A DNA stretch of 64,000 bases from Escherichia coli (GCF_001677475.2 NZ_CP015229.1); one strand, 5' to 3'. Positions 21,758-46,291 are shown, counted from the first letter of the stretch. Notes: generated by a model from the sequence alone, not told the origin. Translations and numbers: made by a program.

Positions 21758-21772
21758 TGCGGAGACAGGAAA

Positions 21773-22489: not shown

Positions 22490-22689
22490 TTAAATGTTGA
22501 TGCCGGGGAAATCCCCCGGCTATTCAGGAAATCTTTAAAAACTGCCCCTGACACTAAGACAGTTTTTAAAGGTTCCTTCGCGAGCCACTACGTAGACAAG
22601 AGCTCGCAAGTGAACCCCGGCACGCACATCACTGTGCGTGGTAGTATCCACGGCGAAGTAAGCATAAAAAAGATGCTTAAGGGATCACG

Positions 22690-25491: not shown

Positions 25492-25505
25492 ATAAAGGAT
25501 ACACA

Positions 25506-26723: not shown

Positions 26724-26745
26724 TAGTTTAAGCTTCACCTGCACT

Positions 26746-26776
26746 GTAGACCGACGTGGATAGGGTGTCGGTCTAC
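26746..26776 (+). other. intercistronic stem-loop between sucB and sucC
   Basis: gtagaccgac / gtcggtctac perfect 10-bp inverted repeat. Confidence 0.5.
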
Positions 26777-26816
26777 GGTTTAAAAGATAACGATTACTGA
26801 AGGATGGACAGAACAC

Positions 26817-27983: not shown

Positions 27984-28852
27984 TGTCCATTTTAATTGAT
28001 AAAAACACCAAGGTTATCTGCCAGGGCTTTACCGGTAGCCAGGGGACTTTCCACTCAGAACAGGCCATTGCATACGGCACTAAAATGGTTGGCGGCGTAA
28101 CTCCAGGTAAAGGCGGCACCACCCACCTCGGCCTACCGGTGTTCAACACCGTGCGTGAAGCTGTTGCTGCTACTGGCGCTACCGCTTCTGTTATCTACGT
28201 ACCAGCACCGTTCTGCAAAGACTCCATTCTGGAAGCTATTGATGCAGGCATCAAACTGATTATCACCATCACTGAAGGCATCCCGACGCTGGATATGCTG
28301 ACCGTGAAGGTGAAACTGGATGAAGCGGGCGTTCGCATGATCGGCCCGAACTGCCCAGGCGTTATCACTCCGGGTGAATGCAAAATCGGTATCCAGCCTG
28401 GTCACATTCACAAACCGGGTAAAGTGGGTATCGTTTCCCGTTCCGGTACACTGACCTATGAAGCGGTGAAACAGACCACGGATTACGGTTTCGGTCAGTC
28501 GACCTGTGTTGGTATCGGCGGCGACCCGATCCCTGGCTCTAACTTTATCGACATTCTCGAAATGTTCGAAAAAGATCCGCAGACCGAAGCGATCGTGATG
28601 ATCGGTGAGATCGGCGGTAGCGCTGAAGAAGAAGCGGCTGCGTACATCAAAGAGCACGTTACCAAGCCAGTTGTAGGTTACATCGCTGGTGTGACTGCGC
28701 CGAAAGGCAAACGTATGGGCCACGCGGGTGCGATCATTGCCGGTGGGAAAGGGACTGCGGATGAGAAATTCGCTGCTCTGGAAGCCGCAGGCGTGAAAAC
28801 TGTTCGCAGCCTGGCGGATATCGGTGAAGCACTGAAAACTGTTCTGAAATAA
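27983..28852 (+). CDS. sucD: succinyl-CoA synthetase alpha subunit
   Basis: 289-aa ORF, 1-nt overlap with sucC. Confidence 0.97.
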
Positions 28853-28951
28853 ATATCTGTAATAAGAAATAGCCCTCGCCGCTTCCCTCTACAGGAATGG
28901 CGAAGGGCTGTCGGTTTCGACATGGTTGGCCATCGTATGATGGCCTTTTTT
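28853..28951 (+). ncRNA. sdhX: sucD 3'UTR-derived sRNA region (SdhX/RybD-like) ending in an intrinsic terminator
   Basis: Two hairpins (agccctcgcc...ggcgaagggct at 28871-28909; ggccatc...gatggcc plus T6 at 28928-28951) directly after sucD stop; position matches the known SdhX locus; sequence identity not verified. Confidence 0.5.
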
Positions 28952-30347
28952 ATGCCTTAAACGTTAACCACGGTCGAAATCTGACCGCTGGCTGAATTAA
29001 TCCGGCTTCTTGTTGAGCTTCGATAACCGGACCAATATCTTTATAAGCCGCTGGCGCTTCTTCAAGACGTCGTTCTTCGCGCAATGTGACGCATTGCCAC
29101 GGCAGCGTTGACTCTTCAGTCACGCGTGAGCGCATGGCCTGCCGACGCTGGCTGCGTCCTGCTCCGTGACTGCATGACCACAGCCACTCCGGGTTGCCGC
29201 AACCTACCGCAAGCCACGAATAATCGCCCATTGAACCAGGGATTAATGCCAGATCACCCACTCGTGCCGGTGTTGCGCCTTTGCGATGAATATTCATTTC
29301 ATGCTCGCGAAGGATGATGTTATGTGGCACATCCACCACCAGATGCGAATTGTCCTGATGAAAGAGATCGGCAAAACATACGCGCACCATTTCGGCAATT
29401 GTGACGCGATTTAACCATGCGTAACGCGCCGCCATCCCCATCGCTTGTAGATATTCCTCCGCCAGTCCACCGGTTAGACCATATAACTCGCTTTGTGGAT
29501 GTTTATGCCCGGCAGGCCAGGCGGCACGGGCGCGATCCATCCAGCGTCTTCCGACGTAAAAGCCAACATCTCGCGATCCACTGTGGATCATCACCACAAT
29601 ATCGCCTGTTTTCAGCCCTTGTTGCCAGGCTACATGGCGATCAACCACGCTATCAACGACCTGAAGTTCAATAAAATGATTACCTGAACCCGGCGTACCC
29701 AGACAAGGATCGCGGAGTAATGCGCGGTCCGTTGCCAGCAGGGCGGGTGGGGCATAACGCGAATGACTGTTATGCTCGTTAAGCCCAATGCAGCGGTCAA
29801 TCTCTTGTACCATTCGGGGGATATTCGTGCGTGTCCAGAGACCTGCTGATGGCAAGGTCGACACGCAATCTGCCGGTCCGTCATCAAAAAGCGCGGTGAA
29901 CGCCTGTGCGGATAACGGAACATCGCGCTCATTTTGCAGTAGCACTTGCGTTAACCGCTGAGCGATGACGTCTTTATGCGCTTCGGCTTGCTCAAGTGTT
30001 AATCCGGTCGTCAGCAGCCGCATGCCACAAGAAATATCGGTGCCGATGGCGGCAGGAATGACTAAATCCGGCGTTGAGGCCACCACCGCGCCAACGGGGA
30101 CGCCATTGCCGGGATGAAAATCTGGCGTCGCGCACGTCTGGCGCACATAACCTGGGTGGTCTGGTAGCTTCACTTCTGCAAAATCAAGCAGTTGTGTTAC
30201 TGCTTTTTCTTCCAGCGGCAGTTCGTCCGGCAGCAGTACGCGGGCACTGGCACCTGATGGACGAGATAATGAAACAATATTGTTGGCGCGGGAAAGTTGG
30301 ATCCCTTTGCGCAGAAAGGCTTTATCAAGCCTTGAAAGATGATGCAT
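28950..30347 (-). CDS. RtcB-family RNA ligase paralog (3'-phosphate/5'-OH ligase family)
   Basis: 465-aa ORF with RtcB motifs aligned to E. coli RtcB from memory: PAAIGTDISCGM, GSGNHFIE, IHSGSRDVG, IPGSMG, SCSHGAGR, AYKDI. Confidence 0.85.
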   Translation of the reverse strand: MHHLSRLDKAFLRKGIQLSRANNIVSLSRPSGASARVLLPDELPLEEKAVTQLLDFAEVKLPDHPGYVRQTCATPDFHPGNGVPVGAVVASTPDLVIPAAIGTDISCGMRLLTTGLTLEQAEAHKDVIAQRLTQVLLQNERDVPLSAQAFTALFDDGPADCVSTLPSAGLWTRTNIPRMVQEIDRCIGLNEHNSHSRYAPPALLATDRALLRDPCLGTPGSGNHFIELQVVDSVVDRHVAWQQGLKTGDIVVMIHSGSRDVGFYVGRRWMDRARAAWPAGHKHPQSELYGLTGGLAEEYLQAMGMAARYAWLNRVTIAEMVRVCFADLFHQDNSHLVVDVPHNIILREHEMNIHRKGATPARVGDLALIPGSMGDYSWLAVGCGNPEWLWSCSHGAGRSQRRQAMRSRVTEESTLPWQCVTLREERRLEEAPAAYKDIGPVIEAQQEAGLIQPAVRFRPWLTFKA

Positions 30348-30938
30348 AACGCTGTCCTGAAATATAGACGTTAAACAACCCCCTGTATTGCGAGGGTAAT
30401 TTTGTCTTTCCGGTCAGCAGCCAGCAAAAGGGAAAGAAAACGCGCGTAGTGTATGTGGCGATAGCAAGTTTTACAAGTGGTAAATCTGGCTTATTGTTAA
30501 AGAGAAATTATCTTTAGCGAAGCCTTTTAAGGCCATGACTCATTCAATTTAACCGGACACAGAGATTATATAACATAGGGTATCTAAATTTATCATTGTA
30601 TACTTGTCATACTTCAAGTTGCATGTACTGCATCGATGTTCGCTCAGCCTGGCCACTTACTTATGTAAGCTTCTGGGAATTCATTATTTGTTGCCTTCCT
30701 GCAACTCGAGTTATTTAGAGTATATTTACACATATGAATAATATACTTACAATAATGTTTTTAAAGTATTGCATGCGGATAACTGAGGTGAAATTCCTGT
30801 TTTAGGATTATTGTCACTTTATTTTCCTGGTTGGACATATAGCTGACTGGTTTGTTTATTTGAATTATGATATTCATTAGTGCTACTGTTTTTTTATAAA
30901 ATAATTTTTTGAATTGTTATTTTTTCACGGAAGGCATT

Positions 30939-31844
30939 ATGCGAGGGAAAATACCTAAAACGGAACTGCTGGTGACTTTTGAGGTCGTCGCACGTCATGA
31001 AAGTTATACCAGAGCGGCAGAGGAGTTAGCGTTAACCCAAAGTGCAGTATTCAGACAAGTGAGTGCGCTGGAGGAATTTTTACATACTCCGTTATTTTCA
31101 CACTCTAAAAAACGTATTTTTCTTAATGATGCAGGGAAGTATTACCTGGGGATAGTAAAAGAAACATTAAATAAGCTGGAACGCGATACCAATACCATTA
31201 TGACCTGGCAACCTACAGTTAAGGTTATTGAACTTGCCGTGAATCCTACGTTTAGTACCCACTGGTTAATCCCAAATTTACATGAATTCACAAAGTTACA
31301 TCCCGATATTATTGTTAATATTCACTCTTTAGCTAATAACGGCGATTTTCTTAATCGGGAGTACGATGCTGTCATTATGCGCGAAAATTTTTGCGCGCCC
31401 TGGGCGGAAGTAGAATATCTCTTTGAAGAAGAGATTTTGCCGGTATGCAGCGGCAGTTTGCTTGCAATGTCCGATCAAAAACTGTCAGTGGCAGAACTGC
31501 TTACAGAGTTACCACTTCTGCATCAAAGTACCCGTATTACTGGCTGGGAAGAGTGGTTTGCTTTATCTGGCGTTAGCAGTCCGCTGGTCAATAACGGACC
31601 ACGTTTCGATTTGCTTTCAATGCTGATTGCCGCCGTGCGCTCTAATCTCGGCGTGGCGCTGTTACCACGGTTCGCTATTCAACATGATTTGGATAGTGGC
31701 GATATGGTGATTCCCTGTGATGTGCCTATTCGTACCGGTAATCGTTTTATTATGACGTGGCAGGAAGAGAAGTCTGACTCGCCGCACTTGCAGCAATTTC
31801 GTGAATGGTTGCTGGCGAAATCGGTCGTACCGCAGGAGATGTAA
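30939..31844 (+). CDS. LysR-family transcriptional regulator
   Basis: N-terminal HTH (LVTFEVVARHESYTRAAEELALTQSAVFRQVSALE), ~300 aa, GGAAGG Shine-Dalgarno before ATG at 30939; divergent from the RtcB paralog. Confidence 0.85.
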   Translation: MRGKIPKTELLVTFEVVARHESYTRAAEELALTQSAVFRQVSALEEFLHTPLFSHSKKRIFLNDAGKYYLGIVKETLNKLERDTNTIMTWQPTVKVIELAVNPTFSTHWLIPNLHEFTKLHPDIIVNIHSLANNGDFLNREYDAVIMRENFCAPWAEVEYLFEEEILPVCSGSLLAMSDQKLSVAELLTELPLLHQSTRITGWEEWFALSGVSSPLVNNGPRFDLLSMLIAAVRSNLGVALLPRFAIQHDLDSGDMVIPCDVPIRTGNRFIMTWQEEKSDSPHLQQFREWLLAKSVVPQEM

Positions 31845-31877
31845 AACCTGCGCCTGGCGGGATGCCAGGCGCAGTTA

Positions 31878-32480
31878 TTACCAGTCGATACCCGGCTGGG
31901 CCTGAATGCCGCTATCAAAAGCATGTTTGACGGGGCGGATTTCGCTGACCGTATCCGCCATTTTTAATATCTGACTGTGGCAACCGCGTCCGGTGACAAT
32001 GACACTTTGTTGTGCCGGGCGGTTTTGCAGAGAAGCGATCACTTCTTCGGTATCCAGATAATGGTAAGCCAGCATATAGGTGAGCTCATCAAGCACCACT
32101 AAGTCGTAACGCTTGTCAGCCAGCATCCGTTTGCTTTCCGACCAGACCTCTTTCGCCGCGTCGATATCCGCTTGTCGGTTCTGTGTTTCCCAGGTAAAAC
32201 CGGTTCCCATAATATGAAACTCAACCCCCAGCGGCTGGAGAAGGTTGTATTCGCCGTTGTCCCATTGCCCCTTGATGTACTGCGCAACCCCCACCGTTTT
32301 GCCATGACCCACCGCGCGCGTCACAGTACCAAACGCGGCAGTGGATTTCCCTTTGCCGTTGCCGGTGAAAACAATCAAGATCCCTTTTTTCTCTATCGCC
32401 GCCGCGACGCGCGTATCGACCTGTTCCTTCAATTTCTGCTGGCGCTGCACATGCCGTTCTGTTGAAATTCGCGCTTCCAT
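31878..32480 (-). CDS. ATP:cob(I)alamin adenosyltransferase, BtuR/CobA-type paralog
   Basis: 200-aa ORF closely resembling E. coli BtuR (VFTGNGKGKSTAAFG P-loop, VVLDELTYM, RPVKHAFD); last gene of the island operon. Confidence 0.85.
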   Translation of the reverse strand: MEARISTERHVQRQQKLKEQVDTRVAAAIEKKGILIVFTGNGKGKSTAAFGTVTRAVGHGKTVGVAQYIKGQWDNGEYNLLQPLGVEFHIMGTGFTWETQNRQADIDAAKEVWSESKRMLADKRYDLVVLDELTYMLAYHYLDTEEVIASLQNRPAQQSVIVTGRGCHSQILKMADTVSEIRPVKHAFDSGIQAQPGIDW

Positions 32481-32489
32481 TCATTTTCC

Positions 32490-34142
32490 TTAATGTCCCG
32501 CAGGGCAACTGGCGCAGCGGTGTTGCTGCTCAAACTGACTAAAGAAATTATTGCCTTTATCATCTACCAGGATGAATGCGGGCAGATTTTCCACTTCCAT
32601 CATCCACACCGCTTCCATACCCAGCTCCGGGTATTCAAGGCAACGCAGACTTTTGACATATTCTTGCGCCAGTAACGCAGCTGCACCGCCAATACTTCCC
32701 AGATTGAAGCCGCCATGTTTGTGACAGGCATCGGTGACCTGCTGGCTGCGGTTACCTTTCGATAACATCACCAGACTGCCGCCAGCCGCCTGGAAGGTAT
32801 CGACATAACCGTCCATTCGACCGCCCGTGGTTGGACCCAGTGAACCGCAGGCCATGTTCTCCGGTGTTTTCGCCGGGCCAGCGTAATAGACAATATGATG
32901 CTTCAGGTAATCCGGCATCGGTTCGGCGCTATCCAGCCGCGCTTTTATTTTGGCGTGGGCGATATCGCGTGCCACTACGATGGGACCACTTAACGACACG
33001 CGGGTGCCTACCGGTAATCTGGCGAGATCCTGCATCACGTCACGCAACGGACGGTTTAGATCCAGATGTACATGTTGCGCGTGATTTTCTTCCCGCAGTG
33101 AGGCTGGAATATATTGCCCCGGATTGTGTTCGAGTTTTTCCAGCCAGATACCGTGCTTGTTAATTTTTGCTTTGATATTGCGATCGGCAGAACAGGAGAG
33201 CGCCATAGCTATCGGACAAGAGCCACCGTGACGCGGCAGACGAATGACGCGAATATCATGAGCGAAATATTTACCCCCAAATTGCGCACCAATACCAAAT
33301 TGCTGACTGGCCTCGAGCAACACTTTTTCCAGCTCAATATCACGGAATGCTTGTCCCTGCTCGTTTCCGCTGGTGGGCAAATTGTCGTAATATTTCGTTG
33401 AGGCCAGCTTGGCAACTTTTAAGGTTTGATCGGCTGAAAGCCCTCCGACGACAAAGGCGATGTGGTAAGGCGGGCAGGCAGCGGTGCCCAGCGATTTCAT
33501 TTTTTCGATTAAAAATGCGGTCAGTTTTTCTGGTTGCAATAAGGATTTGGTTTCCTGATAAAGTGCGGCTTTATTGGCGGAGCCGCCCCCTTTATTAACA
33601 CAGAGAAAATGGTACTCATTACCAGCGACAGCGTTGATATCAATCTGCGCCGGGAGATTGGTTTGCGTATTGACTTCGGTATACATATCCAGCGGCGCAT
33701 TTTGTGAAAAGCGCAGATTATTTTCCTGGAAAGTGGTGTAAATGCCTTTGCTTAAGGCTTCAGCGTCGTTACCTCCGGTCCATATCTGTTGCCCTTTACT
33801 GGCAACAATAGTTGCGGTGCCGGTATCCTGACAGTTGGGTAATACCCCTTTTGCTGAGACTTCAGCATTACGTAATAACTGCAACGCAACGTATTTATCA
33901 TTACTACTGGCCTGCGGATCGTTAAGAATGCTGGCGACCTGTTGCAAATGAGCGGAACGTAAGAAAAAAGAAGCTTCATAAAATGCCTGCCGGGCAAGCA
34001 GCGTTAATGCTTCAGGTGCGATTTTTATCACTTCTTCGCCGTCTAATTCCGTTACTGTAATATGCTGATCGCTAATTAATGTATATTCTGTACCGTCTTT
34101 ATTTTGTAGAAATGGTTCTTGCCAGATAAATGGTTTGGACAT
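32490..34142 (-). CDS. fumD: class I fumarate hydratase homolog, probable mesaconase/fumarase (FumD-like)
   Basis: 550-aa ORF highly similar to FumA/FumB along its length ([39 protein letters not shown]); clustered with glutamate mutase and methylaspartase. Confidence 0.85.
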
Positions 34143-34249
34143 ATTTCACTTTTCACCTTAAACGTTAGTGTTACTTAATTGCCGTCTAACTTCATGATCC
34201 GGCTTATAAAAATGCATAGTCATTGGCTTCTGATTGCTTAAGATCCCCC

Positions 34250-35530
34250 TCAGGGCAGAGCAACGTTCGATTCATTGGGTTTTAATGCTTTACCCCGACA
34301 GCCCTCGCCGAAATGTTCGCCTTCCCACCGACTCACCATCGCAGCGCCCATTGCGTTGCTCATGACGTTTGTCGCGGAACGCCCCATATCAAGGAACGGA
34401 TCAACGCCCATCAGCAAGATCAGCCCCGCTTCCGGAATATTGAACTGGTTGAGCGTGGCGGCGATAACCACCATTGAAGCGCGTGGTACGCCAGCCATTC
34501 CTTTCGAGGTCAACATCAGGATCAACAGCATGGTGATTTGCTCACCGATGGATAAATGGATATTGCAGGCCTGGGCGATGAAAACTGTGGCGAAGGAGCA
34601 GTAGGCCATTGATCCAACGAGATTAAATGAGTAGCCAATGGGTAAGACAAAGCTGGCAATTTTGGGGGAAACGCCAAATTGCTCCAGTTTTTCAAGCGTT
34701 CCTGGAAAAGCCGCTTCAGAACTGGATGTGGTAAATGCCAGCAGGGCGGGTTCCGAAAGGGCGCGGGTCAGGCGTCTGATGCAGGGGCCGACATAAACGA
34801 TGGCCAGACCGATAAGCAGCACCCAAAGTAACAACATGGTGAAATAAAATTCACCCATAAAGATCCCGGCGCTCACCATAACTGCCAGTCCTCGTTCAGC
34901 AATCAATGCTGAAATAGCGGCGAATACGGTCAGGGGAGCGAAGAGCATGACGTAGCCAGTGAGCTTTAACATGGCATGTGCCAGCGAATCTAAGGCGTGA
35001 ACGATGGCGCTGCCTTTCTCGCCAATCGCCGTCAGGCTACAGCCGAGGAAAATTGAGAACACCACGATTTGCAAAATTTCATTGTGCGCCATGGCATCGA
35101 CAATGCTGGTGGGGAAAGCATGCGAAATAAATACTTTTAGCGTGAAGGGTTCTGACGCGACCACTCCAGTGGTTTCGGCACCGTGTGCAACAAAATTAAT
35201 TCCTGTACCTGGCATGAAGAAATTTACTGTTATTAAGCCTAAGGCAATTGACAGCAATGAGGCGCAAATAAATAAAAAGAGTGTTTTAGAAAAAATACGA
35301 CCAAGGGCTTTGGCATCGCCCATTTTAGCAATACCTACCACCAGGGTAGAGACCACTAACGGAGCGATAATCATTTTTATCAGTCGTAAGAAAATCGTCG
35401 TGAATATCGATATTTCTTGCGCATAGAGTTTTGCGGTTTCCGGTGAAGCAGTGTTATTGAGCACTACGCCGATAACCATTCCAAGTACCAGCGCCAAAAG
35501 AATCATCGTGGTTAAACTTATTTTCTTCAT
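34250..35530 (-). CDS. dicarboxylate/amino acid:cation symporter (DAACS family; GltP/DctA-like)
   Basis: Polytopic ORF with DAACS-type motifs; Met at 35530 preceded by GGAGG; substrate not inferable. Confidence 0.8.
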   Translation of the reverse strand: MKKISLTTMILLALVLGMVIGVVLNNTASPETAKLYAQEISIFTTIFLRLIKMIIAPLVVSTLVVGIAKMGDAKALGRIFSKTLFLFICASLLSIALGLITVNFFMPGTGINFVAHGAETTGVVASEPFTLKVFISHAFPTSIVDAMAHNEILQIVVFSIFLGCSLTAIGEKGSAIVHALDSLAHAMLKLTGYVMLFAPLTVFAAISALIAERGLAVMVSAGIFMGEFYFTMLLLWVLLIGLAIVYVGPCIRRLTRALSEPALLAFTTSSSEAAFPGTLEKLEQFGVSPKIASFVLPIGYSFNLVGSMAYCSFATVFIAQACNIHLSIGEQITMLLILMLTSKGMAGVPRASMVVIAATLNQFNIPEAGLILLMGVDPFLDMGRSATNVMSNAMGAAMVSRWEGEHFGEGCRGKALKPNESNVALP

Positions 35531-35575
35531 TTTTTCCTCCATCAGGTGCACGGCGATAAATCAGAATCAGGAGAA

Positions 35576-35607
35576 GTAGATGCCTGAATAGAGATTCAGG
35601 CATCTAC
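35576..35607 (-). other. intercistronic perfect hairpin (14-bp stem, 4-nt loop)
   Basis: gtagatgcctgaat-agag-attcaggcatctac between the small coupled gene and the transporter gene. Confidence 0.5.
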
Positions 35608-35690
35608 CTGCTATTACAACCTTACAAATAGCTGAAGTGTTGAACTGCAATAAGTGACGGGATGTCAGTTGGCTAAAAGTGTTCGGATTT

Positions 35691-36008
35691 TTACAAATCG
35701 AAACTCATATTTAATAAAGGTGCATGTTGCTGTGCACCATAGACATCATTGTCACCTACATTCCCGGAGATAATATCTCGTGGCATGACGATTTTTACTG
35801 CGTTAGAAGGATCAAACCAGACAATACGATGAATAAAGTCAGGTTCAACATGATATAAGCGCGCAATCAGTTCTGGGGTTAATTGCCCTGATGATTTAAC
35901 TCGCTCATAGTTTTCTTTGGTTTTAAATAAAATATCTAAAACCAGTTCGTAAGGTCCGGCATTTTTCGAACGAATGACTTGCGCCAGTGAGACAATTGAC
36001 TGTTTCAT
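35691..36008 (-). CDS. uncharacterized small protein, partner of the upstream 456-aa protein (possibly DUF4387-like; unverified)
   Basis: 105-aa ORF overlapping the upstream gene by 4 bp; no motif I can assign. Confidence 0.55.
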   Translation of the reverse strand: MKQSIVSLAQVIRSKNAGPYELVLDILFKTKENYERVKSSGQLTPELIARLYHVEPDFIHRIVWFDPSNAVKIVMPRDIISGNVGDNDVYGAQQHAPLLNMSFDL

Positions 36009-37375
36009 GCCTGAACTCCTTCTGGCGTCACCTGTTCAATATGGAAATCAAAACGCAGAGCGTCGTTGGCTTCAATCAGGTGATATATGGAAAATTCGTA
36101 TACTGGCCCGCCCTGGATATCAGAAGGGGAGAACGGGAACGCCAGGTTGCCTGCGGTAGCGATGCGGTTTTCATAGCCGTAGTGCAGCATAGTAGAGCGC
36201 ACCAGCGAGCAAACGCTGTTGGCAATTTCCTGGGTCGATGCAACTACATCTAGCACAATCCCCAGCTCATGCCCGGCAGTTTGCATCGGTTCATGGTCGC
36301 CCATCACCCCGTTTTTGCCGTACAGGTGGAAATTGATGCGAATGCTGTCATCGTCGAGCGACAGGTTACGCGAAACGCTGGTTTTGACTTCATCGATGAT
36401 TTTATCGATCCCGGCGATCATGATCGGGTCGCGCGTTCCTGCGATGGTCAGACAGCGGAAGCCCACTCGTCGCGCACCTTCCAGTTTCAGGGCATACGGC
36501 GTTCCTTCATGCTTAGAACCGCTGACGTACACTTCGCCGTCATTGACCGCTTTAAATGTGCAGCCTTTCAGGTTCAACACGCCGCCAGGTCCAGGCAGGA
36601 AGTAGGGATCGGATTTCTCATACAGTGTGTGTGCAGCCGCTGACGTTTCGGTAAATTTACGCTTCGGATTAAATGTCTTCAGCGTAAAGCCGTTGTCATC
36701 AATGATGCCCATCGCACAGTCAGAGCCTGAGCCGGGCGTTGCGGCGATTGCCGCGCATTCAAGGATTTTCCCACAATGCAGCGCCAGACCTTCATCAAAG
36801 CCTTGCATGATCGGTAGCGCAGCAAAGCAGGCCGGGTCGTAAGCGCGCCCGCCCAGCACCACTTGCGCGCCTTCTTTCAGCGCCTGCTGGAAGGGTTCGA
36901 TGCCCATTTGCGCGACGATATACGTACTTTCGTCAATCGCGTCGTGGGTTAACGGCGGGACAAAATCCAGCGCCGTGATTTTGCCGTTATCCAGCGCCTG
37001 GTGGACGATGGCTTTGTCAACGTCTGCCGGGATCAACGCCATCGAGAACGAGAGGTGCTCTTCCCGGGCAATCTCATGAATTATTTCTCGGCACCACTCC
37101 AGGTGTGGTGCGGCACCAGAACCGCCAGCCGTTCCGATCACCACCGGTATATTATTTTGCACGCCTGCGGTGATCATATAGCGCAGATCGCGCTTGACCC
37201 CTGCGCGATCGGTAAACGGTTTGCCTGCCCCGAGGTAGTGGGGGCCTGGATCGGAAGAGCCTGCATCAACGGCGATCAGATCGGGCGATTCTGCCATCGC
37301 TTTGCGGAAGCTCTCTTCCGGGAATCCATACCCGAGGATTGCCGTTGGCGATAAGACTTTAAAAGAACGAGCCAT
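36005..37375 (-). CDS. uncharacterized protein, large member of a coupled pair (possibly DUF1446/AtuA-like or an AcnX-type hydratase; unverified)
   Basis: 456-aa ORF starting 3 bp after methylaspartase; several conserved-looking Cys/Gly-rich stretches (GTAGGSGAAPH, HCGKILECAAIAATPGSGSDC); family assignment needs an HMM search. Confidence 0.55.
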   Translation of the reverse strand: MARSFKVLSPTAILGYGFPEESFRKAMAESPDLIAVDAGSSDPGPHYLGAGKPFTDRAGVKRDLRYMITAGVQNNIPVVIGTAGGSGAAPHLEWCREIIHEIAREEHLSFSMALIPADVDKAIVHQALDNGKITALDFVPPLTHDAIDESTYIVAQMGIEPFQQALKEGAQVVLGGRAYDPACFAALPIMQGFDEGLALHCGKILECAAIAATPGSGSDCAMGIIDDNGFTLKTFNPKRKFTETSAAAHTLYEKSDPYFLPGPGGVLNLKGCTFKAVNDGEVYVSGSKHEGTPYALKLEGARRVGFRCLTIAGTRDPIMIAGIDKIIDEVKTSVSRNLSLDDDSIRINFHLYGKNGVMGDHEPMQTAGHELGIVLDVVASTQEIANSVCSLVRSTMLHYGYENRIATAGNLAFPFSPSDIQGGPVYEFSIYHLIEANDALRFDFHIEQVTPEGVQA

Positions 37376-37378
37376 TTG

Positions 37379-38620
37379 TTAATCCTTAGCCTGCAACAGC
37401 GCGATAGTACGATTCATTTCGTTGAAGACAATATCGAGGCCTTCGTCAAAGCCCATCCCAGGTTTTACCAGCATACGCATAGGGCGAGCGGCAAGGGCGA
37501 CGTGGACACAGGTGCGTGCACTGACATCAGTTTCATTGCAGGTGCCGCCCTGGTACGCTTCCATGTTGTGGCTGTTGCAATAAAGAACTGCATCGACGAT
37601 GTTGTGAATACTGCCCAGATCCGGGGTTTTGATTTGCACCATGTGGCAACTGGCGGCATCAGTGAAATCAACAATATCCTGGTAGGTGTTACACCATTCA
37701 TCGGCCACAATTTTCACGCCGGAACCGAGGCGCATCAGCTCTTTGGTAATCGCGGTCAGCAGGCGAATTTGATCGGGCTTGTTACCGGCATCGACCGGCC
37801 CTTCAATGTAGAGCGGCAGGCCTTGCGCTTCTTTTTCCAGGCTGGCGATGTATTGCGCACAGCGAAGCGGATCCATATCGAAGATCAGACCGATAGTGCC
37901 GTATACATCGATGTGCAGGGTTGGGTGGTAGCGTGCGCTGGTGCGCTTGCTCAGAATGCGATCCGACAGCCAGCGGACATATTCGCGCAGTTTTTCACCT
38001 TTAAAGCCCAGCTTCTCTTCGACGTTATTAATCAGCGCATGGGGCAGCACGTCGATGCCTTTAAGGATCATCTTATCGACGGCGATATATCGATCGTCGC
38101 CGCTCTGACCAAATAATGGAATGGATTCCGCCACGCGTGGCAACTGCCATTCATCACAGACCACTTCAGTTTTCAGACGGCCGGTTGCCAGCGCGGCAGC
38201 ATCAAGCAGCGCCTGTGATAATCCGTAGCGCACGGCGGTATGCAGCAAGTTGCCGTCAATACGCAATTTGTCGAAGAAACGGGCATTCGGCAGGAAAGCA
38301 TCCACATCGCGGCCTACCAGTAATGGCTTAATATGGTCGTTGAGGAACGGAATAAAGTGCTCTGCGAGGAACAGTGGATCGCGACCACCTGCCCCGGAAT
38401 ACTGTACGGCAGCACAGTCACCTACAGCGACCGCGCCGTTTTCCAGAATCAACTGTACCGATACGCACTCCCCAGCCTGACGTACGGCGTTAAACCCTTG
38501 TGTTACTGGCTCCCCGGTATAAAAAAAGCCGTCGTGACCCGCTCCGTTTTTTATCGCCTGCTGGTCATCGAAATAGAATGAGGAATAGCCAGCGGTGAAC
38601 AGGGCCTGTTTTATTTTCAT
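37379..38620 (-). CDS. mal: 3-methylaspartate ammonia-lyase (beta-methylaspartase)
   Basis: 413-aa ORF, enolase-superfamily methylaspartase signature (FYFDDQ.AIK.GAGHDGF N-terminus). Confidence 0.9.
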   Translation of the reverse strand: MKIKQALFTAGYSSFYFDDQQAIKNGAGHDGFFYTGEPVTQGFNAVRQAGECVSVQLILENGAVAVGDCAAVQYSGAGGRDPLFLAEHFIPFLNDHIKPLLVGRDVDAFLPNARFFDKLRIDGNLLHTAVRYGLSQALLDAAALATGRLKTEVVCDEWQLPRVAESIPLFGQSGDDRYIAVDKMILKGIDVLPHALINNVEEKLGFKGEKLREYVRWLSDRILSKRTSARYHPTLHIDVYGTIGLIFDMDPLRCAQYIASLEKEAQGLPLYIEGPVDAGNKPDQIRLLTAITKELMRLGSGVKIVADEWCNTYQDIVDFTDAASCHMVQIKTPDLGSIHNIVDAVLYCNSHNMEAYQGGTCNETDVSARTCVHVALAARPMRMLVKPGMGFDEGLDIVFNEMNRTIALLQAKD

Positions 38621-40065
38621 TATGGTCTTCCTATTAATTTACTGTGGGATACAGCATTGATGTCATCTACAACCATCTGGAATGTCGGTTGGCGTCCTTC
38701 AAAGCGTGCGCGTTCCGCAACGTAATCGTGGTGGAGGTCGAGAATATCTTTTGGCAATGGAACGGCTCCGGCTTCCAGTACGCGTATCGCGCCGGTGTTG
38801 TCACGGACCGGAAGAATTTTGCCCGCGTTGCAGGCGGCTGGCGCAAATGGCACATCCAGTACGCCCGCTTCAAATGCCAGCACCGTTCCGCGCGCAATAT
38901 CATCATTACCCAGTTCGAACACTTTATTCAGTACTGCGCGAACCTCGCTCTTAATCAGTTCAATTTCCAGTTCAACCGCAGGGCACGGCGGAAATTTCTG
39001 CTCATTGACCATGTTGAGCATCTGGCGGGAGGCTTTTAGCCCCTGAATGTTGGCAGCGGCAGTCGGGATGCCCCAGGCTTCGTGCGGACTTTTGGTGATG
39101 ACTTTGGTGGCACCAGACATCCCCGCGACGGCTGCGCCCCAGGAGATAATAGCGAACGCTTTCGATTCGTCTTCCGGAAAGCCGCCCATCCACTGGTGAA
39201 ACACGGTACTTAATTCATAGTCGGTATAGCCATAGCTCTGAAAGTAGTCATGTGCAAGTTCACGCAGAGACTGGATCGCCGCAACATCCTGCGTCAGGCT
39301 GCCGACCTGTCCATAACCAACGGTGATAGATTTCACACCCTGTTCCAGTGCCAGCAATCCTTCGATTATCGCGATAGAGTGCGAGATAAACGGCGGGATC
39401 AGCGTACCCGTTAGTGGGCCAAACGGTTCGCGGTTGATGCGGATCCCGTGTTCTTCATACATCCCCATTAAACGGTCGCAGTACTGCCAGTCGCGGATCG
39501 ATTTTTCCAGCGTTACGCGTTTGGCATACGGAATGTTGTAGGAAATGCCGCCGCCTTCATAACTGGTAAAGCCGCTGGACATCGAGATTTCAGCCAGCAG
39601 ACGTGCATCTGGCGTGCCGTGGCGGATCTGTAGCGGTTTTTGCAGGGTTTCGGTGAGGCGACGGCAAGCAGCGACACCATGGTTAACTACCGGTAAACCG
39701 TTCAGTTTAGAGGTTCCGGCTTCGATGGATTTTTTAATCCCTACAGCCGCTTCTTCGTACCGATTCAGACGGGTATATGCATCGATGGTGCTTGGCAGCA
39801 GATCGCACTCTTCTTGTAGTGTTTTCAGTAGTTCGATGTGTTCGTCCATCAGCGCCACACCTGCGCGTGGTTGGCTAAGGGTTTTTCCTTCCTTGTCTGC
39901 TTTCAGCAGCGCAAGAGAGAAGCGTTTATGCTCAGGAATGGTTTGTTGGTATTTAACGCCATCTTCAAAGTTTTCAACATCCTTGCCGGTTTCCCAGGTT
40001 TTCAGTACCTGTTGCCGCTCGGTCATGAATTCGTCATGGGTTAATTTCTTATTTCGAAGTTCCAT
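38620..40065 (-). CDS. glmE: glutamate mutase epsilon (E) subunit
   Basis: 481-aa ORF matching methylaspartate mutase E chain; 1-nt overlaps with mal and near glmL. Confidence 0.88.
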   Translation of the reverse strand: MELRNKKLTHDEFMTERQQVLKTWETGKDVENFEDGVKYQQTIPEHKRFSLALLKADKEGKTLSQPRAGVALMDEHIELLKTLQEECDLLPSTIDAYTRLNRYEEAAVGIKKSIEAGTSKLNGLPVVNHGVAACRRLTETLQKPLQIRHGTPDARLLAEISMSSGFTSYEGGGISYNIPYAKRVTLEKSIRDWQYCDRLMGMYEEHGIRINREPFGPLTGTLIPPFISHSIAIIEGLLALEQGVKSITVGYGQVGSLTQDVAAIQSLRELAHDYFQSYGYTDYELSTVFHQWMGGFPEDESKAFAIISWGAAVAGMSGATKVITKSPHEAWGIPTAAANIQGLKASRQMLNMVNEQKFPPCPAVELEIELIKSEVRAVLNKVFELGNDDIARGTVLAFEAGVLDVPFAPAACNAGKILPVRDNTGAIRVLEAGAVPLPKDILDLHHDYVAERARFEGRQPTFQMVVDDINAVSHSKLIGRP

Positions 40066-40083
40066 TGATTGCAGCCTTAATTG

Positions 40084-41472
40084 TTATAGGGTTAAGCATT
40101 GAATACTGGTGCGCGCGGCGGCCAGCGGATCGACTCTGGCGACGTTTGCCAGCAGTGGTAATAGCCCCCGGGAATCGCGGTAATATTCAAATTCGGTCGG
40201 TAAGAGAATGCGTTTACCGTCGTCGTTTAACTCGCGGTATTTCAACCAGTGATGCATATCGAACTGACTGGCACGCGAGAGCCATCCGCCGGAACCCACG
40301 ACTTTACGCACGGTTGTCAGGTCACGTCCCATCTGTAAATCGACATTGCCGACGCAGGTGCAGACCTCTTTTTTGGTGCCCGCATGTCTTTCGGTGGCAT
40401 AACCCACACACAGTCCGGCCAGGACGGTATCGAAATATTTCTCTTCTGCATTTGCGGGTAAGTAGTCGGGATGAGCGACTAAATGACGGAGATAATGATA
40501 AAAAGCGTCCAGCTGTGCGGGTTGCTGAGCAAAATTCACATTGACTAACTCTTTCGCACTTTCACCAACCACCACTGCCGAGACGCGCATTCCCAGATCG
40601 CCTTCCACCGTCCGTTTTACGAAGGGTTCCGGTACGCCGTGTAAAACGGTGTCGGGCGAGAGCGTGTTGGCACAGGCGGAATAGACATCGGTGGTTGCGC
40701 CGCCCATGTCGATCAGCATGAACTCTTTCCAGCTGTGATCGACGTTACTGATTGCCTTAACCAGTTCAAAGACCGTCCATGGTGTCGGCCTTGGTTCTTC
40801 GCCTGTTTTATCAACAATGACATCCAGCCCTTTCCCTTTAACGATGCGTTTAAGGAATATGTCGCAAATAGCCTGGCGTGCGGCTAAAGGGTTCGGATGG
40901 TCAAGATCGGGCAGAACGTTGTCGACGATGGTCAGGTCTTTATGCCCGAGGAGCTCCTGCACCTCGTCCTGAATATCCCGGTTTCCGGCATAAATAATGG
41001 CGCAGTCGAGTTGGGATTCTGCCAGCACACGGGCGTTATTCAGTCCGTAACTTTCTTCTCCGCCGTCGGTGCCGCCGGTGAACAAGAGAATATCGGGCTG
41101 CGTTTCTTCCAGTGCCTGGATATCACGGCGGTTCAGCTTGTAGGAGTAATATTGCGCAATTTTAGCCCCCGCAGAGTGAGCGGTTACTTTCGCGGTTTCC
41201 AGGGTGATAGAAGGCACCAATCCCATTGCGGCAACCGCCAGCCCACCTTTGGCAGAGGAGGAATACTTTAATGCAACCTCACCACTGTTTAACAGGGGGA
41301 GGGCATCATCTACGTTTAACACCTGGTCCAGGCTGGAGAAAAACCCCTTCGCCAGATGATGGGTGGTGGTTGGGGTCAGAACGTGGTTAACCAACGTTAA
41401 CGCGTCCCCCTCCCGGGTGAAGAGGGCTGCTTTGGTCCACGTCGAACCAATATCGACAGAGACGATTTGCAT
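40084..41472 (-). CDS. glmL: glutamate mutase accessory protein (GlmL/MutL)
   Basis: 462-aa ORF between S and E subunit genes as in clostridial glmS-glmL-glmE; overlaps glmS stop. Confidence 0.8.
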   Translation of the reverse strand: MQIVSVDIGSTWTKAALFTREGDALTLVNHVLTPTTTHHLAKGFFSSLDQVLNVDDALPLLNSGEVALKYSSSAKGGLAVAAMGLVPSITLETAKVTAHSAGAKIAQYYSYKLNRRDIQALEETQPDILLFTGGTDGGEESYGLNNARVLAESQLDCAIIYAGNRDIQDEVQELLGHKDLTIVDNVLPDLDHPNPLAARQAICDIFLKRIVKGKGLDVIVDKTGEEPRPTPWTVFELVKAISNVDHSWKEFMLIDMGGATTDVYSACANTLSPDTVLHGVPEPFVKRTVEGDLGMRVSAVVVGESAKELVNVNFAQQPAQLDAFYHYLRHLVAHPDYLPANAEEKYFDTVLAGLCVGYATERHAGTKKEVCTCVGNVDLQMGRDLTTVRKVVGSGGWLSRASQFDMHHWLKYRELNDDGKRILLPTEFEYYRDSRGLLPLLANVARVDPLAAARTSIQCLTL

Positions 41473-41921
41473 CAGATTGCCTCTTCAAGAATGCGAGTAT
41501 CAACGTCATGACGTTGGTTGATATCGTGGGCCATCAGCTGACAAACATCTTCTAAGTCATGACTTGGGGAAAAGACGCGATCAAATCCCATCTCTTTGAA
41601 CTTGGTTTCCACGTCAGCGAAGTCATGTTTTCCGACCACCAGGTTACCGCCCACATAGAGCAGGATGTTACCCAGCCCACGCTCGATGCAGCGTTCGCGC
41701 ATGCCCAGACAATCGATATCGCCATGCCCATAGATAGAAGAGACGACAATCGCGTCAGCGCCAGTTTCAATAGCAGCATCAATATATTCGTCCTGGCTGA
41801 CCATTACGCCCAGATTAATGACTCTGAAGTCGTGGTTGCTAAAAACGCGGTCCAGAACTTTATTGCCTACTGCATGGCAGTCCGCGCCAATAACGCCAAT
41901 CACAAGTGTTGCTTTCTTCAT
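41472..41921 (-). CDS. glmS: glutamate mutase sigma (S) subunit, B12-binding
   Basis: Cobalamin-binding motif ([10 protein letters not shown]); start at 41921 ([19 protein letters not shown]) preferred over track start 41984. Confidence 0.88.
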
Positions 41922-41984
41922 GGGTAATCCTTTGTAAGACAGAGAGTAAAATAAGTTACACACGTCGTATTTATGGCCGCTCAT

Positions 41985-42468
41985 AACGGCACAGGTTTAA
42001 TATCACAGGAGTGTCTTTATCTGACCGTAATGTTGCAATTGATCTATTTTCAAAATGTCTTTCGGGAAATGATTGTTTAAAGTGTGTTTTCAAATTCTCA
42101 TTTTAATTCAGTGTGTTATGTCAACTAATGTCATGAATGTTAAATTTTTAAAATTAACTTGATTTGATGTATTGAGATAATTGTGATCAACTTCTAATTT
42201 GCATTTTTGTGACGTGGCTTTAGCCATGAGTAAATGCATTTCATAAAAGTTAAGTCGAATTTCACTGCAATTCATCTCTGCTTAATGTAAAAATAATGTT
42301 GAAAATAACAAATAATTAATGATTCATGCGAATTATGACCTTTGTTAGCTCTTTTGATTTTTCGTAAAAAAGAAAAGCACATGAAGGTGCTACCAGTACG
42401 AGAAACGTTAATCAAAAGTTTTATTACGTCTGGCAATAACGCAGGCCATTTTTCGCGACAGGAGGGAT
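41985..42468 (-). promoter_or_regulatory. AT-rich leader/promoter region of the glmS-led operon
   Basis: ~480-bp very AT-rich non-coding spacer upstream of glmS; individual sites not resolved. Confidence 0.5.
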
Positions 42469-42891
42469 TTAATCAGTATAATCCTCATACAATAGGTCAG
42501 GATTTACAGAACCGTTAACGGGGTTTTGGTGTTGAAATTTAGAAATGGTGGAGTCAATCAATGAAGACAGTATCGAAAAAATGACTGTGTCAGAACTAAT
42601 TTCAATTAATCCTTCTCGTTGTTGATCAAAAAAGATATTTATCTTGATTTCATTTGTACTACGGCAATCAATATGTAGTAATTTTTGATCGCTGAGATTT
42701 TCTGTTTCATAAATGTTTTTGGCGATAGTCGGATGTATTGATGCCAGACATCTGCTCAGATAAGCCATATCCTTTAAGGAACTCCCCGCTGAGTAGAGGA
42801 TGTCAGAGAATTTTTGTGTGTCAACTGTTGTCTCTGAAGCGTATGTTGCATTGACAGGAAGAGTATTGAAAGAGATCTGAGATGGTATCAT
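42469..42891 (-). CDS. hypothetical protein (no recognisable family)
   Basis: 140-aa ORF in low-GC DNA, co-oriented with and 81 bp downstream of the 314-aa ORF. Confidence 0.5.
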   Translation of the reverse strand: MIPSQISFNTLPVNATYASETTVDTQKFSDILYSAGSSLKDMAYLSRCLASIHPTIAKNIYETENLSDQKLLHIDCRSTNEIKINIFFDQQREGLIEISSDTVIFSILSSLIDSTISKFQHQNPVNGSVNPDLLYEDYTD

Positions 42892-42972
42892 TATTTAAAT
42901 CTTTCCGTGAGTAATAAAAATTAATCCCCAGGCATTGTTTAGCAATATTTGCCATAGGGGATATATAGAAAA

Positions 42973-43917
42973 TTAAAGTATTTTATTGGCTTCGGTTAAC
43001 TGATCTATAACCAGTGCCAGATTGGTAAACATTTTGAAAAAGCGATACTGGCTCGGAATATCTCTTTCAAAGACGAAACATTCAAGGTCATTGTTTGAAA
43101 AATAAAGGACTAGTGTTGCTGATTCGTCAGGGAAAACATGGAAATGTATCTGGTTACCAGAAGGAGGATAGTCCAGAAGAAGGGTATCTTTGCCCGTCAC
43201 ATACCTGTTGTTGTCGTGGACGCTACGCTCACACTTCATCAGAGGTGTCAGGATACTCATGTATTCATCTGATGTTAATTTATTAAAATCATCATTCATT
43301 TTAAAGAAACGATAAAGTAACAGTACATCCTCTTGCGTAACCGGTTCGTTTGTTTTTAGAGGGAAATAAGCGGGAACCAGAAGATGAGGTTCTAATCTAT
43401 TTTGTTGAGCGCTATAACTGAATTTGAACATAAATTCTGGATCGCTCATCAATTGAGCGACATAATTATGCCTGGCTTCAAAAATTTTAATTTTTATCAG
43501 GTTGAATAAGTCTGTTTCGTCATCCTGTATTAAAAGACATTGGCCATAGCAGCCTGGATTTTTTTCATTATAAGCAGAAACGGTTATTCTGTCAGAGGTG
43601 TCAACGTTATATTCAAAAGCCAGATAGTGACCTTCTTCATCGCGATTTGTTTCCAGGTTATTTAAATTCATCACATGAAGTGTTTGCAATGCTGATTCAA
43701 TGAGTTGTTGACTCTCTGAGGTAAATGTTTTGCGCTGCGTTGTATAAAGTGTATCAATTCCAACGACTATCCGATGTGGATCAAGGATGGCGGCAATCAT
43801 CTTTATTACCTGCACAGTCACGGGTGATGTCATTGATTCTTCATCTGTTTTTAGAGGATCATTAGATGGCCAACCTGAGAAGCGATTGACAGCCGAACCG
43901 ATATTATCTGGACTCAT
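42973..43917 (-). CDS. hypothetical protein (no recognisable family)
   Basis: 314-aa ORF, low GC (~37-38% by eye versus ~51% backbone), no motif I can assign. Confidence 0.55.
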   Translation of the reverse strand: MSPDNIGSAVNRFSGWPSNDPLKTDEESMTSPVTVQVIKMIAAILDPHRIVVGIDTLYTTQRKTFTSESQQLIESALQTLHVMNLNNLETNRDEEGHYLAFEYNVDTSDRITVSAYNEKNPGCYGQCLLIQDDETDLFNLIKIKIFEARHNYVAQLMSDPEFMFKFSYSAQQNRLEPHLLVPAYFPLKTNEPVTQEDVLLLYRFFKMNDDFNKLTSDEYMSILTPLMKCERSVHDNNRYVTGKDTLLLDYPPSGNQIHFHVFPDESATLVLYFSNNDLECFVFERDIPSQYRFFKMFTNLALVIDQLTEANKIL

Positions 43918-44722
43918 AGCAGCAACCTCATTGTAATCAAGCGAGGCGCTGAGCGTACTCGGCTATAGAAAAACTAACTTGCAAAAATCGCTCATTTTTC
44001 ATTTATCAGGCGAAAGTGGCCTCTGTTCACTCAGAAACAATCACTCCCGCTAAGTCATACCTGTTTCATCGATACATTTAAGTGATTATTACTAATGAAA
44101 CAATAACATAACGGGCTTACGGTCGGTGCTCATAAAGGCAACAATCAATTAACTTTGATAAAAATATGTTATGTAAAATAGCAACAAATTGGCTACTCTA
44201 ATCAATTGGTATTATAAAAAGAGGATAAGGCGGTTCTGTTAAATAAAACACTGGTTTTTTATCTATACCTTTTCATTGTAATAATTGTGTTGCATAAATA
44301 TTTCACAATAAATTAACAATAAAATCACCAATGATCTATGGTTTATACATAATTAACATATTTGGTTGGTTTTGATATAAATCAATTTTTAATTCTTGAA
44401 AAAAATCTGCAAAACACGATAAATTGTCGTAGATCAAATTGGTGAGATCGTGACAATTTCGCTATAAATTGATCACTGTCGAAAAATGCAAATTTGCTCA
44501 ATAAAAACCTGTTTATTGTAAGGATTTTGCGGCGTAATATAATTACGGGATCAATTTGGTTTATTCATTAACATATTTGTAACTTTTTTATCATTGTCTT
44601 TTCCTCTTTTGATGAAATGGCAACGATAGAGGCGAGCAAATAATTTTGTATTGGGGCATGCGTGTGACCCTTTCTAACGGGGTTCACTCTCGGAGTCTTC
44701 ATGCGATGAGCAAGGAGTCATG
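43918..44722 (+). promoter_or_regulatory. cydAB upstream regulatory region
   Basis: ~800-bp AT-rich non-coding region before cydA; in K-12 this carries multiple promoters under ArcA/Fnr control (established knowledge; sites not mapped here). Confidence 0.6.
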
Positions 44723-46291
44723 ATGTTAGATATAGTCGAACTGTCGCGCTTACAGTTTGCCTTGACCGCGATGTACCACTTCCTTTTTGTGCCACTGACG
44801 CTCGGTATGGCGTTCCTGCTGGCCATTATGGAAACGGTCTACGTCCTTTCCGGCAAACAGATTTATAAAGATATGACCAAGTTCTGGGGCAAGTTGTTTG
44901 GTATCAACTTCGCTCTGGGTGTGGCTACCGGTCTGACCATGGAGTTCCAGTTCGGGACTAACTGGTCTTACTATTCCCACTATGTAGGGGATATCTTCGG
45001 TGCGCCGCTGGCAATCGAAGGTCTGATGGCCTTCTTCCTCGAATCCACCTTTGTAGGTCTGTTCTTCTTCGGTTGGGATCGTCTGGGTAAGGTTCAGCAT
45101 ATGTGTGTCACCTGGCTGGTGGCGCTCGGTTCAAACCTGTCCGCGCTGTGGATTCTGGTTGCGAACGGCTGGATGCAAAACCCAATCGCGTCCGATTTCA
45201 ACTTTGAAACTATGCGTATGGAGATGGTGAGCTTCTCCGAGCTGGTGCTTAACCCGGTTGCTCAGGTGAAATTCGTTCACACTGTAGCGTCTGGTTATGT
45301 GACTGGCGCGATGTTCATCCTCGGTATCAGCGCATGGTATATGCTGAAAGGTCGTGACTTCGCCTTCGCTAAACGCTCCTTTGCTATCGCTGCCAGCTTC
45401 GGTATGGCTGCCGTTCTGTCTGTTATTGTTCTGGGTGATGAATCCGGCTACGAAATGGGCGACGTGCAGAAAACCAAACTGGCTGCTATTGAAGCTGAGT
45501 GGGAAACGCAACCTGCGCCTGCTGCCTTTACTCTGTTCGGCATTCCTGATCAGGAAGAGGAGACGAACAAATTTGCGATCCAGATCCCTTACGCGCTGGG
45601 CATCATTGCAACGCGTTCCGTGGATACTCCAGTTATCGGCCTGAAAGAACTGATGGTGCAGCATGAAGAACGCATTCGTAACGGGATGAAGGCGTACTCT
45701 CTGCTCGAACAACTGCGTTCTGGTTCTACCGACCAGGCGGTTCGTGACCAGTTCAATAGCATGAAGAAAGACCTCGGTTACGGTCTGCTGCTGAAACGCT
45801 ATACGCCAAACGTGGCTGATGCGACTGAAGCTCAGATTCAACAGGCAACCAAAGACTCCATTCCGCGTGTAGCGCCGCTGTACTTTGCGTTCCGTATCAT
45901 GGTGGCGTGTGGCTTCTTGCTGCTGGCAATCATCGCGCTCTCTTTCTGGAGTGTCATCCGCAACCGCATTGGCGAGAAAAAATGGTTGCTGCGCGCCGCG
46001 CTGTACGGTATTCCGCTGCCGTGGATTGCTGTAGAAGCGGGCTGGTTCGTGGCTGAATATGGCCGCCAACCGTGGGCTATCGGTGAAGTGCTGCCGACAG
46101 CTGTGGCAAACTCGTCACTGACCGCAGGCGATCTCATCTTCTCAATGGTGCTGATTTGTGGCCTGTATACCCTGTTCCTGGTGGCAGAATTGTTCTTAAT
46201 GTTCAAGTTTGCACGCCTCGGCCCAAGCAGCCTGAAAACCGGTCGCTATCACTTTGAGCAGTCTTCCACGACTACTCAGCCGGCACGCTAA
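44723..46291 (+). CDS. cydA: cytochrome bd-I ubiquinol oxidase subunit I
   Basis: 522 aa from [20 protein letters not shown]. Confidence 0.97.

Follow-up and report, generated by a model that had tools for sequence, protein, structure and literature searches.

The stretch of Escherichia coli DNA analyzed here (GCF_001677475.2, NZ_CP015229.1), a window of 64,000 nucleotides (nt), carries between sucD (27983-28852, plus strand) and cydA (44720-46291, plus strand) an accessory segment that is very probably an rtcB-bearing variant of the glutamate fermentation island known from O157:H7, with a nine-gene operon that would encode a complete, coenzyme A (CoA)-independent methylaspartate pathway. The completeness of the pathway turns on two adjacent genes of the AtuA/DUF1446 and DUF4387 families, which the initial annotation had left as an unrecognised coupled pair while stating that no citramalate lyase was evident in the island. 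That statement has to be revised: the two products are ~92% and ~83% identical to CmlA and CmlB, the subunits of an enzyme deposited in the PDB as citramalate lyase, and hence the step that had appeared to be missing is, by homology, encoded inside the island itself.

The nine operon genes lie on the minus strand in the order glmS, glmL, glmE, mal, the AtuA/DUF1446 gene (cmlA), the DUF4387 gene (cmlB), a gene for a dicarboxylate/amino acid:cation symporter (DAACS), fumD, and cobA. As had been noted for the block initially, they are tightly spaced: the distances are -4 to +18 nt across glmS-cmlB, 160 and 107 nt on either side of the transporter gene, and 9 nt between fumD and cobA. The RefSeq annotation of near-identical loci gives the same gene list. 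Protein identities were judged against the curated NCBIfam cut-offs, and the genes, in the order of the operon, are as follows.

41472..41921, minus strand: glmS, B12-binding sigma subunit of glutamate mutase (NF002612, 252 bits against a cut-off of 110)
40084..41472, minus strand: glmL (mutL), glutamate mutase accessory protein/reactivating chaperone (NF040745, 505 bits against a cut-off of 475; TIGR01319, 885 bits)
38620..40065, minus strand: glmE, glutamate (methylaspartate) mutase epsilon subunit (TIGR01503, 858 bits against a cut-off of 390)
37379..38620, minus strand: mal, methylaspartate ammonia-lyase (TIGR01502, 545 bits against a cut-off of 286)
36005..37375, minus strand: cmlA (AtuA/DUF1446 family), citramalate lyase large subunit by homology, 456 amino acids (aa)
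35691..36008, minus strand: cmlB (DUF4387), citramalate lyase small subunit by homology, 105 aa (Pfam DUF4387, E=3e-39)
34250..35530, minus strand: DAACS-family symporter (DctA 312 bits, GltP 302 bits, both below cut-offs)
32490..34142, minus strand: fumD, class I (Fe-S) fumarase/mesaconase (NF011921, 1279 bits against a cut-off of 1060, full length, 1-550 of 550)
31878..32480, minus strand: cobA/btuR-like ATP:cob(I)alamin adenosyltransferase (NF004637, 295.7 bits against a cut-off of 185; TIGR00708, 246 bits against 168)

Six of these proteins (GlmS, GlmL, GlmE, Mal, the FumD-type fumarase, and CobA) pass the curated cut-offs, in agreement with the glutamate mutase, methylaspartate ammonia-lyase, class I fumarase, and BtuR-like adenosyltransferase proposed at the outset; the DAACS transporter proposed with them likewise stands as a family assignment, though it falls below the cut-offs for both GltP and DctA. 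The individual proteins retain the features expected of these families. GlmS has the cobalamin-binding DxHxxG motif at residue 14, and GlmE finds its match among solved structures in PDB 1CCW/6H9E (E=1e-188). Mal is ~93% identical to the crystallized methylaspartate ammonia-lyase of Citrobacter amalonaticus (1KKO) and keeps the catalytic and Mg2+-binding residues H194, D238, E273, D307, Q329, and K331. FumD, which has a strong class I fumarase homolog among solved structures, is 98.4% identical to its O157:H7 counterpart, and the latter has been shown biochemically to act as a mesaconase, with mesaconate preferred 2- to 3-fold (PMC4682846).

The genes cmlA and cmlB are adjacent and overlap by 4 nt. 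Over nearly their full lengths, their products match chain A ("Citramalate lyase, subunit A (cmlA)"; E=4e-291) and chain B ("Citramalate lyase, subunit B (cmlB)"; E=5e-57) of PDB entries 9ERQ/9EVF, and the predicted CmlAB fold superposes on the solved enzyme with a TM score of 0.93. These entries were released in October 2025, and their titles give complexes with AMPPNP and citramalate and with ADP and pyruvate. Functional evidence comes from a preprint in which an E. coli strain auxotrophic for acetyl-CoA, when given cmlAB together with FumA, was able to use mesaconate for growth, the label being recovered in acetyl-CoA-derived leucine (bioRxiv 10.64898/2026.01.16.699985). The genes used there were those of Raoultella planticola, a gift of Berg's laboratory (bioRxiv 10.64898/2026.01.16.699985), and they probably encode the same enzyme as 9ERQ/9EVF. 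Of the domain libraries, Pfam matches CmlA to AtuA (E=2e-18, 67 bits), and no NCBIfam model matches either CmlA or CmlB.

Independent support for the CmlAB assignment is provided by conserved gene order in a distant phylum. The arrangement GntR-glmS-mutL-glmE-mal-AtuA-DUF4387 is found both in Candidatus Rifleibacterium (locus L007) and in an unrelated genome of 5.46 Mb (locus L008); in these, CmlA is 61-66% identical to that of the window, and a fumarase is found nearby, with no citrate-lyase-like genes.

A few further observations concern this pair of genes. In both L007 (10712-11665) and L008 (10677-11618), a conserved protein of 313-317 aa is encoded directly 3' of cmlB. This protein carries the Walker-A motif GAEGxGKST, belongs to no Pfam family, is 62% identical between copies from different phyla, and is missing from the island of E. 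coli. It may serve the lyase or the pathway as an accessory NTPase. We considered the 314-aa ORFan at the far end of the E. coli island as a decayed copy of it and rejected this, there being no similarity between the two. On an Accumulibacter contig (locus L009, 9001-10679), cmlAB stands next to rpoBC with no glm, mal, or fumarase gene nearby, and its CmlA is ~67% identical to that of the window; this suggests that the lyase also serves other contexts related to citramalate or C5-dicarboxylates. Within the window itself, cmlB has a GC content of 38% against 55% for the overlapping cmlA, which is unusual for translationally coupled genes.

Taking the gene content as a whole, we propose the following route. 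Glutamate would be taken up via the DAACS symporter and converted by the adenosylcobalamin-dependent GlmS/GlmE to (2S,3S)-3-methylaspartate; from what is known of these families, GlmL would serve as the reactivating chaperone of the mutase and CobA would adenosylate salvaged cobalamin. Mal would then convert 3-methylaspartate to mesaconate and NH4+, and FumD would convert mesaconate to (S)-citramalate, which CmlAB, by homology, would split into pyruvate and acetate with no involvement of a CoA thioester or an acyl-carrier subunit. The pyruvate would pass into mixed-acid metabolism, where pyruvate formate-lyase, Pta, and AckA would render the overall conversion redox-neutral and ATP-yielding. 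If so, the island would confer on E. coli an anaerobic, B12-dependent use of glutamate, as the initial annotation had also suggested.

The corresponding cluster of O157:H7 was published by Kronen and Berg in 2015 (PLoS One; PMC4682846), who found it in 26.5% of the E. coli genomes that were available at the time and in 90.6% of those of O157:H7 and already remarked on the DUF1446 gene downstream of mal. Their account agrees with what the initial annotation had said of a cluster with FumD, that it occurs in O157:H7 and in a minority of E. coli and that the fate of citramalate there was reported as unresolved. The window and O157:H7 have 12 island proteins in common, all 94-100% identical and free of internal stops. 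For fumD, glmS, glmL, glmE, mal, cobA, and the genes for the transporter, the LysR-type regulator, and DUF1446, the gene order is that of O157:H7 and the protein identities are 98-100%. Relative to O157:H7, the ratio of nonsynonymous to synonymous substitution rates (dN/dS) lies between 0 and 0.17 in the genes of the pathway and between 0.05 and 0.14 in glmS-glmL-glmE and cobA; such low values, along with the lack of stops, argue against decay.

In alignments to MG1655 (L010) and to a K-12-type strain (L003), homology to K-12 stops at 28955 and restarts at 44347, leaving 15,391 bp (28956-44346) with no K-12 counterpart. In MG1655 the order is sucD-sdhX-mngR-mngA-mngB-cydA, the slot being occupied by ~5.9 kb of mngR-mngA-mngB. 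These breaks bear out an accessory island at the sucD-cydA junction that K-12 lacks. The extent given for it initially, 28950-43917, is precisely the span from the first to the last open reading frame (ORF), though we count 13 intact ORFs where 12 genes had been listed. The boundaries of the segment and its features outside the nine-gene block are as follows.

28853..28953, plus strand: SdhX small RNA/sucD 3' untranslated region, left boundary, near-identical to the annotated sdhX of MG1655
28928-28945: sucD/SdhX terminator hairpin, a terminator-like site directly after which K-12 homology ends
28950..30347, minus strand: stand-alone RtcB-family RNA ligase paralog (Pfam RtcB, E=6e-97, residues 63-464)
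30939..31844, plus strand: LysR-type regulator, GcvA-like (NCBIfam GcvA subfamily, 221.6 bits, below the cut-off of 288)
31848..31874, no strand assigned: GC-rich hairpin of 11 pairs (9 GC) that lies between lysR and cobA at their 3' ends
41922..42375, minus strand: AT-rich (~30-39% GC) untranslated region 5' of glmS, from composition and sequence
42391-42376: terminator-like hairpin closing the unit upstream of the glmS leader, from the terminator scan
42469..42891, minus strand: AT-rich ORFan of 140 aa, "hypothetical protein" in homologous loci (dN/dS 0.27 against O157)
42973..43917, minus strand: AT-rich ORFan of 314 aa (dN/dS 0.23)
44346..44347, no strand assigned: right junction; K-12 homology restarts at 44347, within the cydA regulatory region

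The hairpin at 31848-31874 is likely to be a bidirectional terminator that ends the operon, and the operon promoter is presumed to lie within 41922-42375. Scans for promoter and terminator consensus sequences returned counts not above those for shuffled sequence, and of the terminator scan we rely only on the sucD/SdhX terminator and the lysR/cobA hairpin. At the other edge of the segment, the sole perfect FNR-type palindrome (TTGATATAAATCAA) is located at 44372-44385, 26 nt inside the right junction, in the promoter region of cydA. The cydA upstream region is ~96% identical to that of K-12, and the variable slot thus abuts cydA regulatory DNA.

The LysR-type gene lies tail-to-tail with cobA, is annotated in RefSeq as a LysR substrate-binding-domain protein, and is 99.0% identical to the O157:H7 protein at the protein level; judging by position only, it is likely to be the regulator of the operon. 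The RtcB paralog scores under all the NCBIfam RtcB equivalog cut-offs. No rtcA, rtcR, or prfH adjoins its gene, the end of which coincides with the SdhX terminator. Neither of the ORFans is matched in Pfam, NCBIfam, or PHROG, and PADLOC gives no more than a marginal match, for the 140-aa protein (E=0.0096). The 314-aa ORFan is represented by only 5 protein clusters among 5.8 billion sequences, the sole named one being from E. coli. Both ORFans (36-38% GC) accompany the island in every variant seen and have their own terminator-like hairpin (42391-42376).

We surveyed the distribution of these elements across 5426 complete E. coli genomes. The cmlAB pair was found, at a coverage of at least 80%, in 1121, always on the chromosome save for one plasmid match, and at least 80% of positions 28000-45000 was covered in 1116. 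The rtcB-family gene is a variable module (at least 80% covered in 144 genomes). Exactly the arrangement of the window, with rtcB and no hut genes, is that of strain HCP5S3_I2, matched end to end at 98.3%, which is also the maximum for the island region, while the sdh-suc genes (19000-28900) are 98-99% identical to those of E. coli genomes, with a maximum of 99.0%. The lineage of the source strain is not closely represented among complete E. coli genomes. Flank identity is only ~94-96% because the cydA upstream region is variable; an origin outside E. coli, which this low figure had brought into consideration, was rejected in view of the identity of the sdh-suc genes.

The slot between SdhX and cydA is hypervariable and contains mng, hut, rtcB, a gene for a tetratricopeptide repeat (TPR) protein, and the glm cluster in differing combinations. 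Some strains have the TPR-protein gene alone. In O157:H7 the slot holds the island without rtcB, yet with 38-nt and 57-nt scars of rtcB, and keeps ~400 nt (409 nt, ~86% identity) that resemble the flank of the hut module. In strain WP2-W18-ESBL-08 (L006), rtcB is followed by a full hut module (hutU, permease, hutD, hutI, hutG, HAL) and then by the island. Strain A25 (L005, 2457-14183) has mngR-mngAB, then rtcB, and then a remnant of the island (glmE', glmL, glmS, and the two ORFans), a deletion having removed lysR through most of glmE and left glmE as a truncated pseudogene. A25 thus shows that the island can decay. Its tandem arrangement also implies that mng and the island are neighbors in a mosaic slot and not alleles; hence, the earlier statement that the island replaces mngR-mngAB is right for the window relative to K-12 but does not hold if the two are taken as strict alternatives. 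The hut module (L006, 4600-12400), present in 144 of the genomes, is inserted between rtcB and lysR, a site that corresponds to the gap between 30455 and 30921 of the window. Genes leading from histidine to glutamate are in this way placed directly beside a glutamate-degrading operon.

Several observations weigh against a working pathway for glutamate fermentation. In the sole published test of its physiology in E. coli, O157:H7 strain ATCC 700728 had no methylaspartase activity, did not grow anaerobically on glutamate, and was not stimulated by it (PMC4682846). No cobalamin riboswitch or other structured RNA was matched in Rfam at E<=0.1 across 27500-45000. A scan for FNR boxes (TTGAT-N4-ATCAA, with up to 2 mismatches) gave 47 matches against 36 +/- 6 expected, of which only one, a 2-mismatch site, falls 5' of glmS, and no regulatory site there rises above chance. 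The near-equal DctA and GltP scores of the transporter, neither passing its cut-off, permit assignment at the family level only, and its substrate is presumed to be glutamate or a C5-dicarboxylate; it is labeled GltP in Fig. 5 of Kronen and Berg (PMC4682846). Finally, within the literature library searched, we found no primary publication on the function of CmlAB or of AtuA/DUF4387 pairs, this function resting on PDB titles and one preprint.

These points bear on three other explanations. One, also implicit in the initial annotation, is that the pathway stops at (S)-citramalate, which would leave the cell, for example, as a metabolite aimed at the host, with the AtuA/DUF4387 pair having some other role. 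Secretion was proposed in the 2015 study, in which citramalate lyase activity was undetected in O157:H7 extracts (PMC4682846), and the island is indeed devoid of citrate-lyase-type CitDEF genes: the CitF, CitE, CitD, CitC, CitX, and CitG families have no NCBIfam match among the 13 island ORFs, and none is annotated in the homologous loci. Those extracts, however, came from cells that were not expressing the cluster, methylaspartase being undetectable in them. Further, the pair is 92%/83% identical to a citramalate lyase whose structure has citramalate and pyruvate bound, cmlAB supports mesaconate-dependent formation of acetyl-CoA in vivo, and the two genes are translationally coupled and directly 3' of mal, a position kept across phyla. 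We therefore consider excretion as the end point to be improbable. Slightly more credible, though still unlikely, is that the operon works mainly on exogenous compounds, either C5-dicarboxylates or 3-methylaspartate, that come from the diet or the microbiota and are imported by the DAACS transporter, with the glutamate mutase being optional and limited by B12. This would suit a transporter that scores equally with DctA and GltP, the sufficiency of FumD and CmlAB for converting mesaconate to pyruvate and acetate, the occurrence of cmlAB without glm or mal in Accumulibacter, and the inability of E. coli to synthesize B12 de novo. It fits poorly with glmS-glmL-glmE and a dedicated cobA that purifying selection keeps intact, at a dN/dS of 0.05-0.14, with the placement of the three glm genes first in the operon, and with the insertion of the hut module, whose end product is glutamate, beside the cluster in 144 genomes.

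The least credible of these explanations, to which we give very little weight, is that horizontal transfer has left the island as a silent, decaying relic that serves no present function in E. coli. The lack of expression in O157:H7 under any condition tried (PMC4682846), the AT-rich flanks and promoter region, and the A25 deletion from lysR through most of glmE all point in that direction. Yet all nine genes in the window are full length and stop-free, with dN/dS of 0-0.17, and the cluster is intact in ~1120 of the 5426 genomes. Hence, we retain the complete methylaspartate route from glutamate to pyruvate and acetate as the most plausible interpretation of the operon.

A bolder, two-part proposal we advance only tentatively and would not expect to hold in full. 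In its first part, CmlAB would be a nucleotide-using lyase of a new mechanism, in which ATP activates the C4 carboxylate of free citramalate as an acyl phosphate, allowing the C-C bond to be cleaved without CoA or an acyl-carrier protein and yielding either acetyl phosphate or acetate and regenerated ATP. In its second, the hut-adjacent variants, in ~3% of E. coli, would constitute a contiguous catabolic supercluster leading from histidine through glutamate to pyruvate and acetate.

The island has been known since 2015, and the identity of the lyase is already public through the PDB and the preprint. About 1 in 5 complete E. coli genomes, O157:H7 included, carry the island. With CmlAB recognized, these strains would possess every step of a B12-dependent conversion in which glutamate, plentiful in the gut, gives pyruvate, acetate, and ammonia, and the assignment would close the gap left in 2015 regarding the fate of citramalate. 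The physiological question, that is, when the operon is expressed and whether it is of benefit in colonization, is now directly testable. For annotation of the locus, names for citramalate lyase subunits could take the place of "acyclic terpene utilization AtuA family protein" and "DUF4387 domain-containing protein," which RefSeq uses there. The residual interest lies in E. coli physiology and regulation, in how CmlAB works chemically, and in the mosaic SdhX-cydA slot.

Among known systems, the closest is the FumD island of O157:H7, which has the same genes (LysR-type regulator, cobA, fumD, gltP-like, DUF4387, DUF1446, mal, glmE, glmL, glmS, and the two hypotheticals) arranged identically at the same sucD-cydA site; the window has, in addition, an rtcB-family gene that is intact, and upstream of its lysR there is a different spacer, of 465 nt. 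At the level of the lyase, the enzyme of 9ERQ/9EVF has the same composition, with an AtuA-family subunit of 456 aa and a DUF4387 subunit of 105 aa, equal in length to those of the window. The clostridial pathway of Clostridium tetanomorphum and C. tetani likewise comprises GlmS/GlmE, GlmL/MutL, methylaspartate ammonia-lyase, and a class I fumarase-type mesaconase and ends in pyruvate and acetate. However, clostridia cleave citramalate with a citrate-lyase-like CitDEF, which has an acyl-carrier subunit, along with CitCXG, whereas the island would use the unrelated CmlAB instead. The mesaconase is a single-chain FumD in the island and a split MesAB in clostridia, the regulator is of the LysR type as opposed to GntR, and the island, unlike its clostridial counterpart, includes a dedicated cobA and a transporter gene. 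In the haloarchaeal methylaspartate cycle, which serves acetate assimilation, mesaconate is converted to mesaconyl-CoA; the island would rely on direct hydration by FumD and has no CoA-transferase or hydratase of that kind. Last, CmlA belongs to the same Pfam family (PF07287) as AtuA, a protein from the acyclic terpene utilization cluster of Pseudomonas; because its match to the AtuA profile is weak, we place CmlA, on sequence grounds, in a distinct subfamily of the AtuA family.

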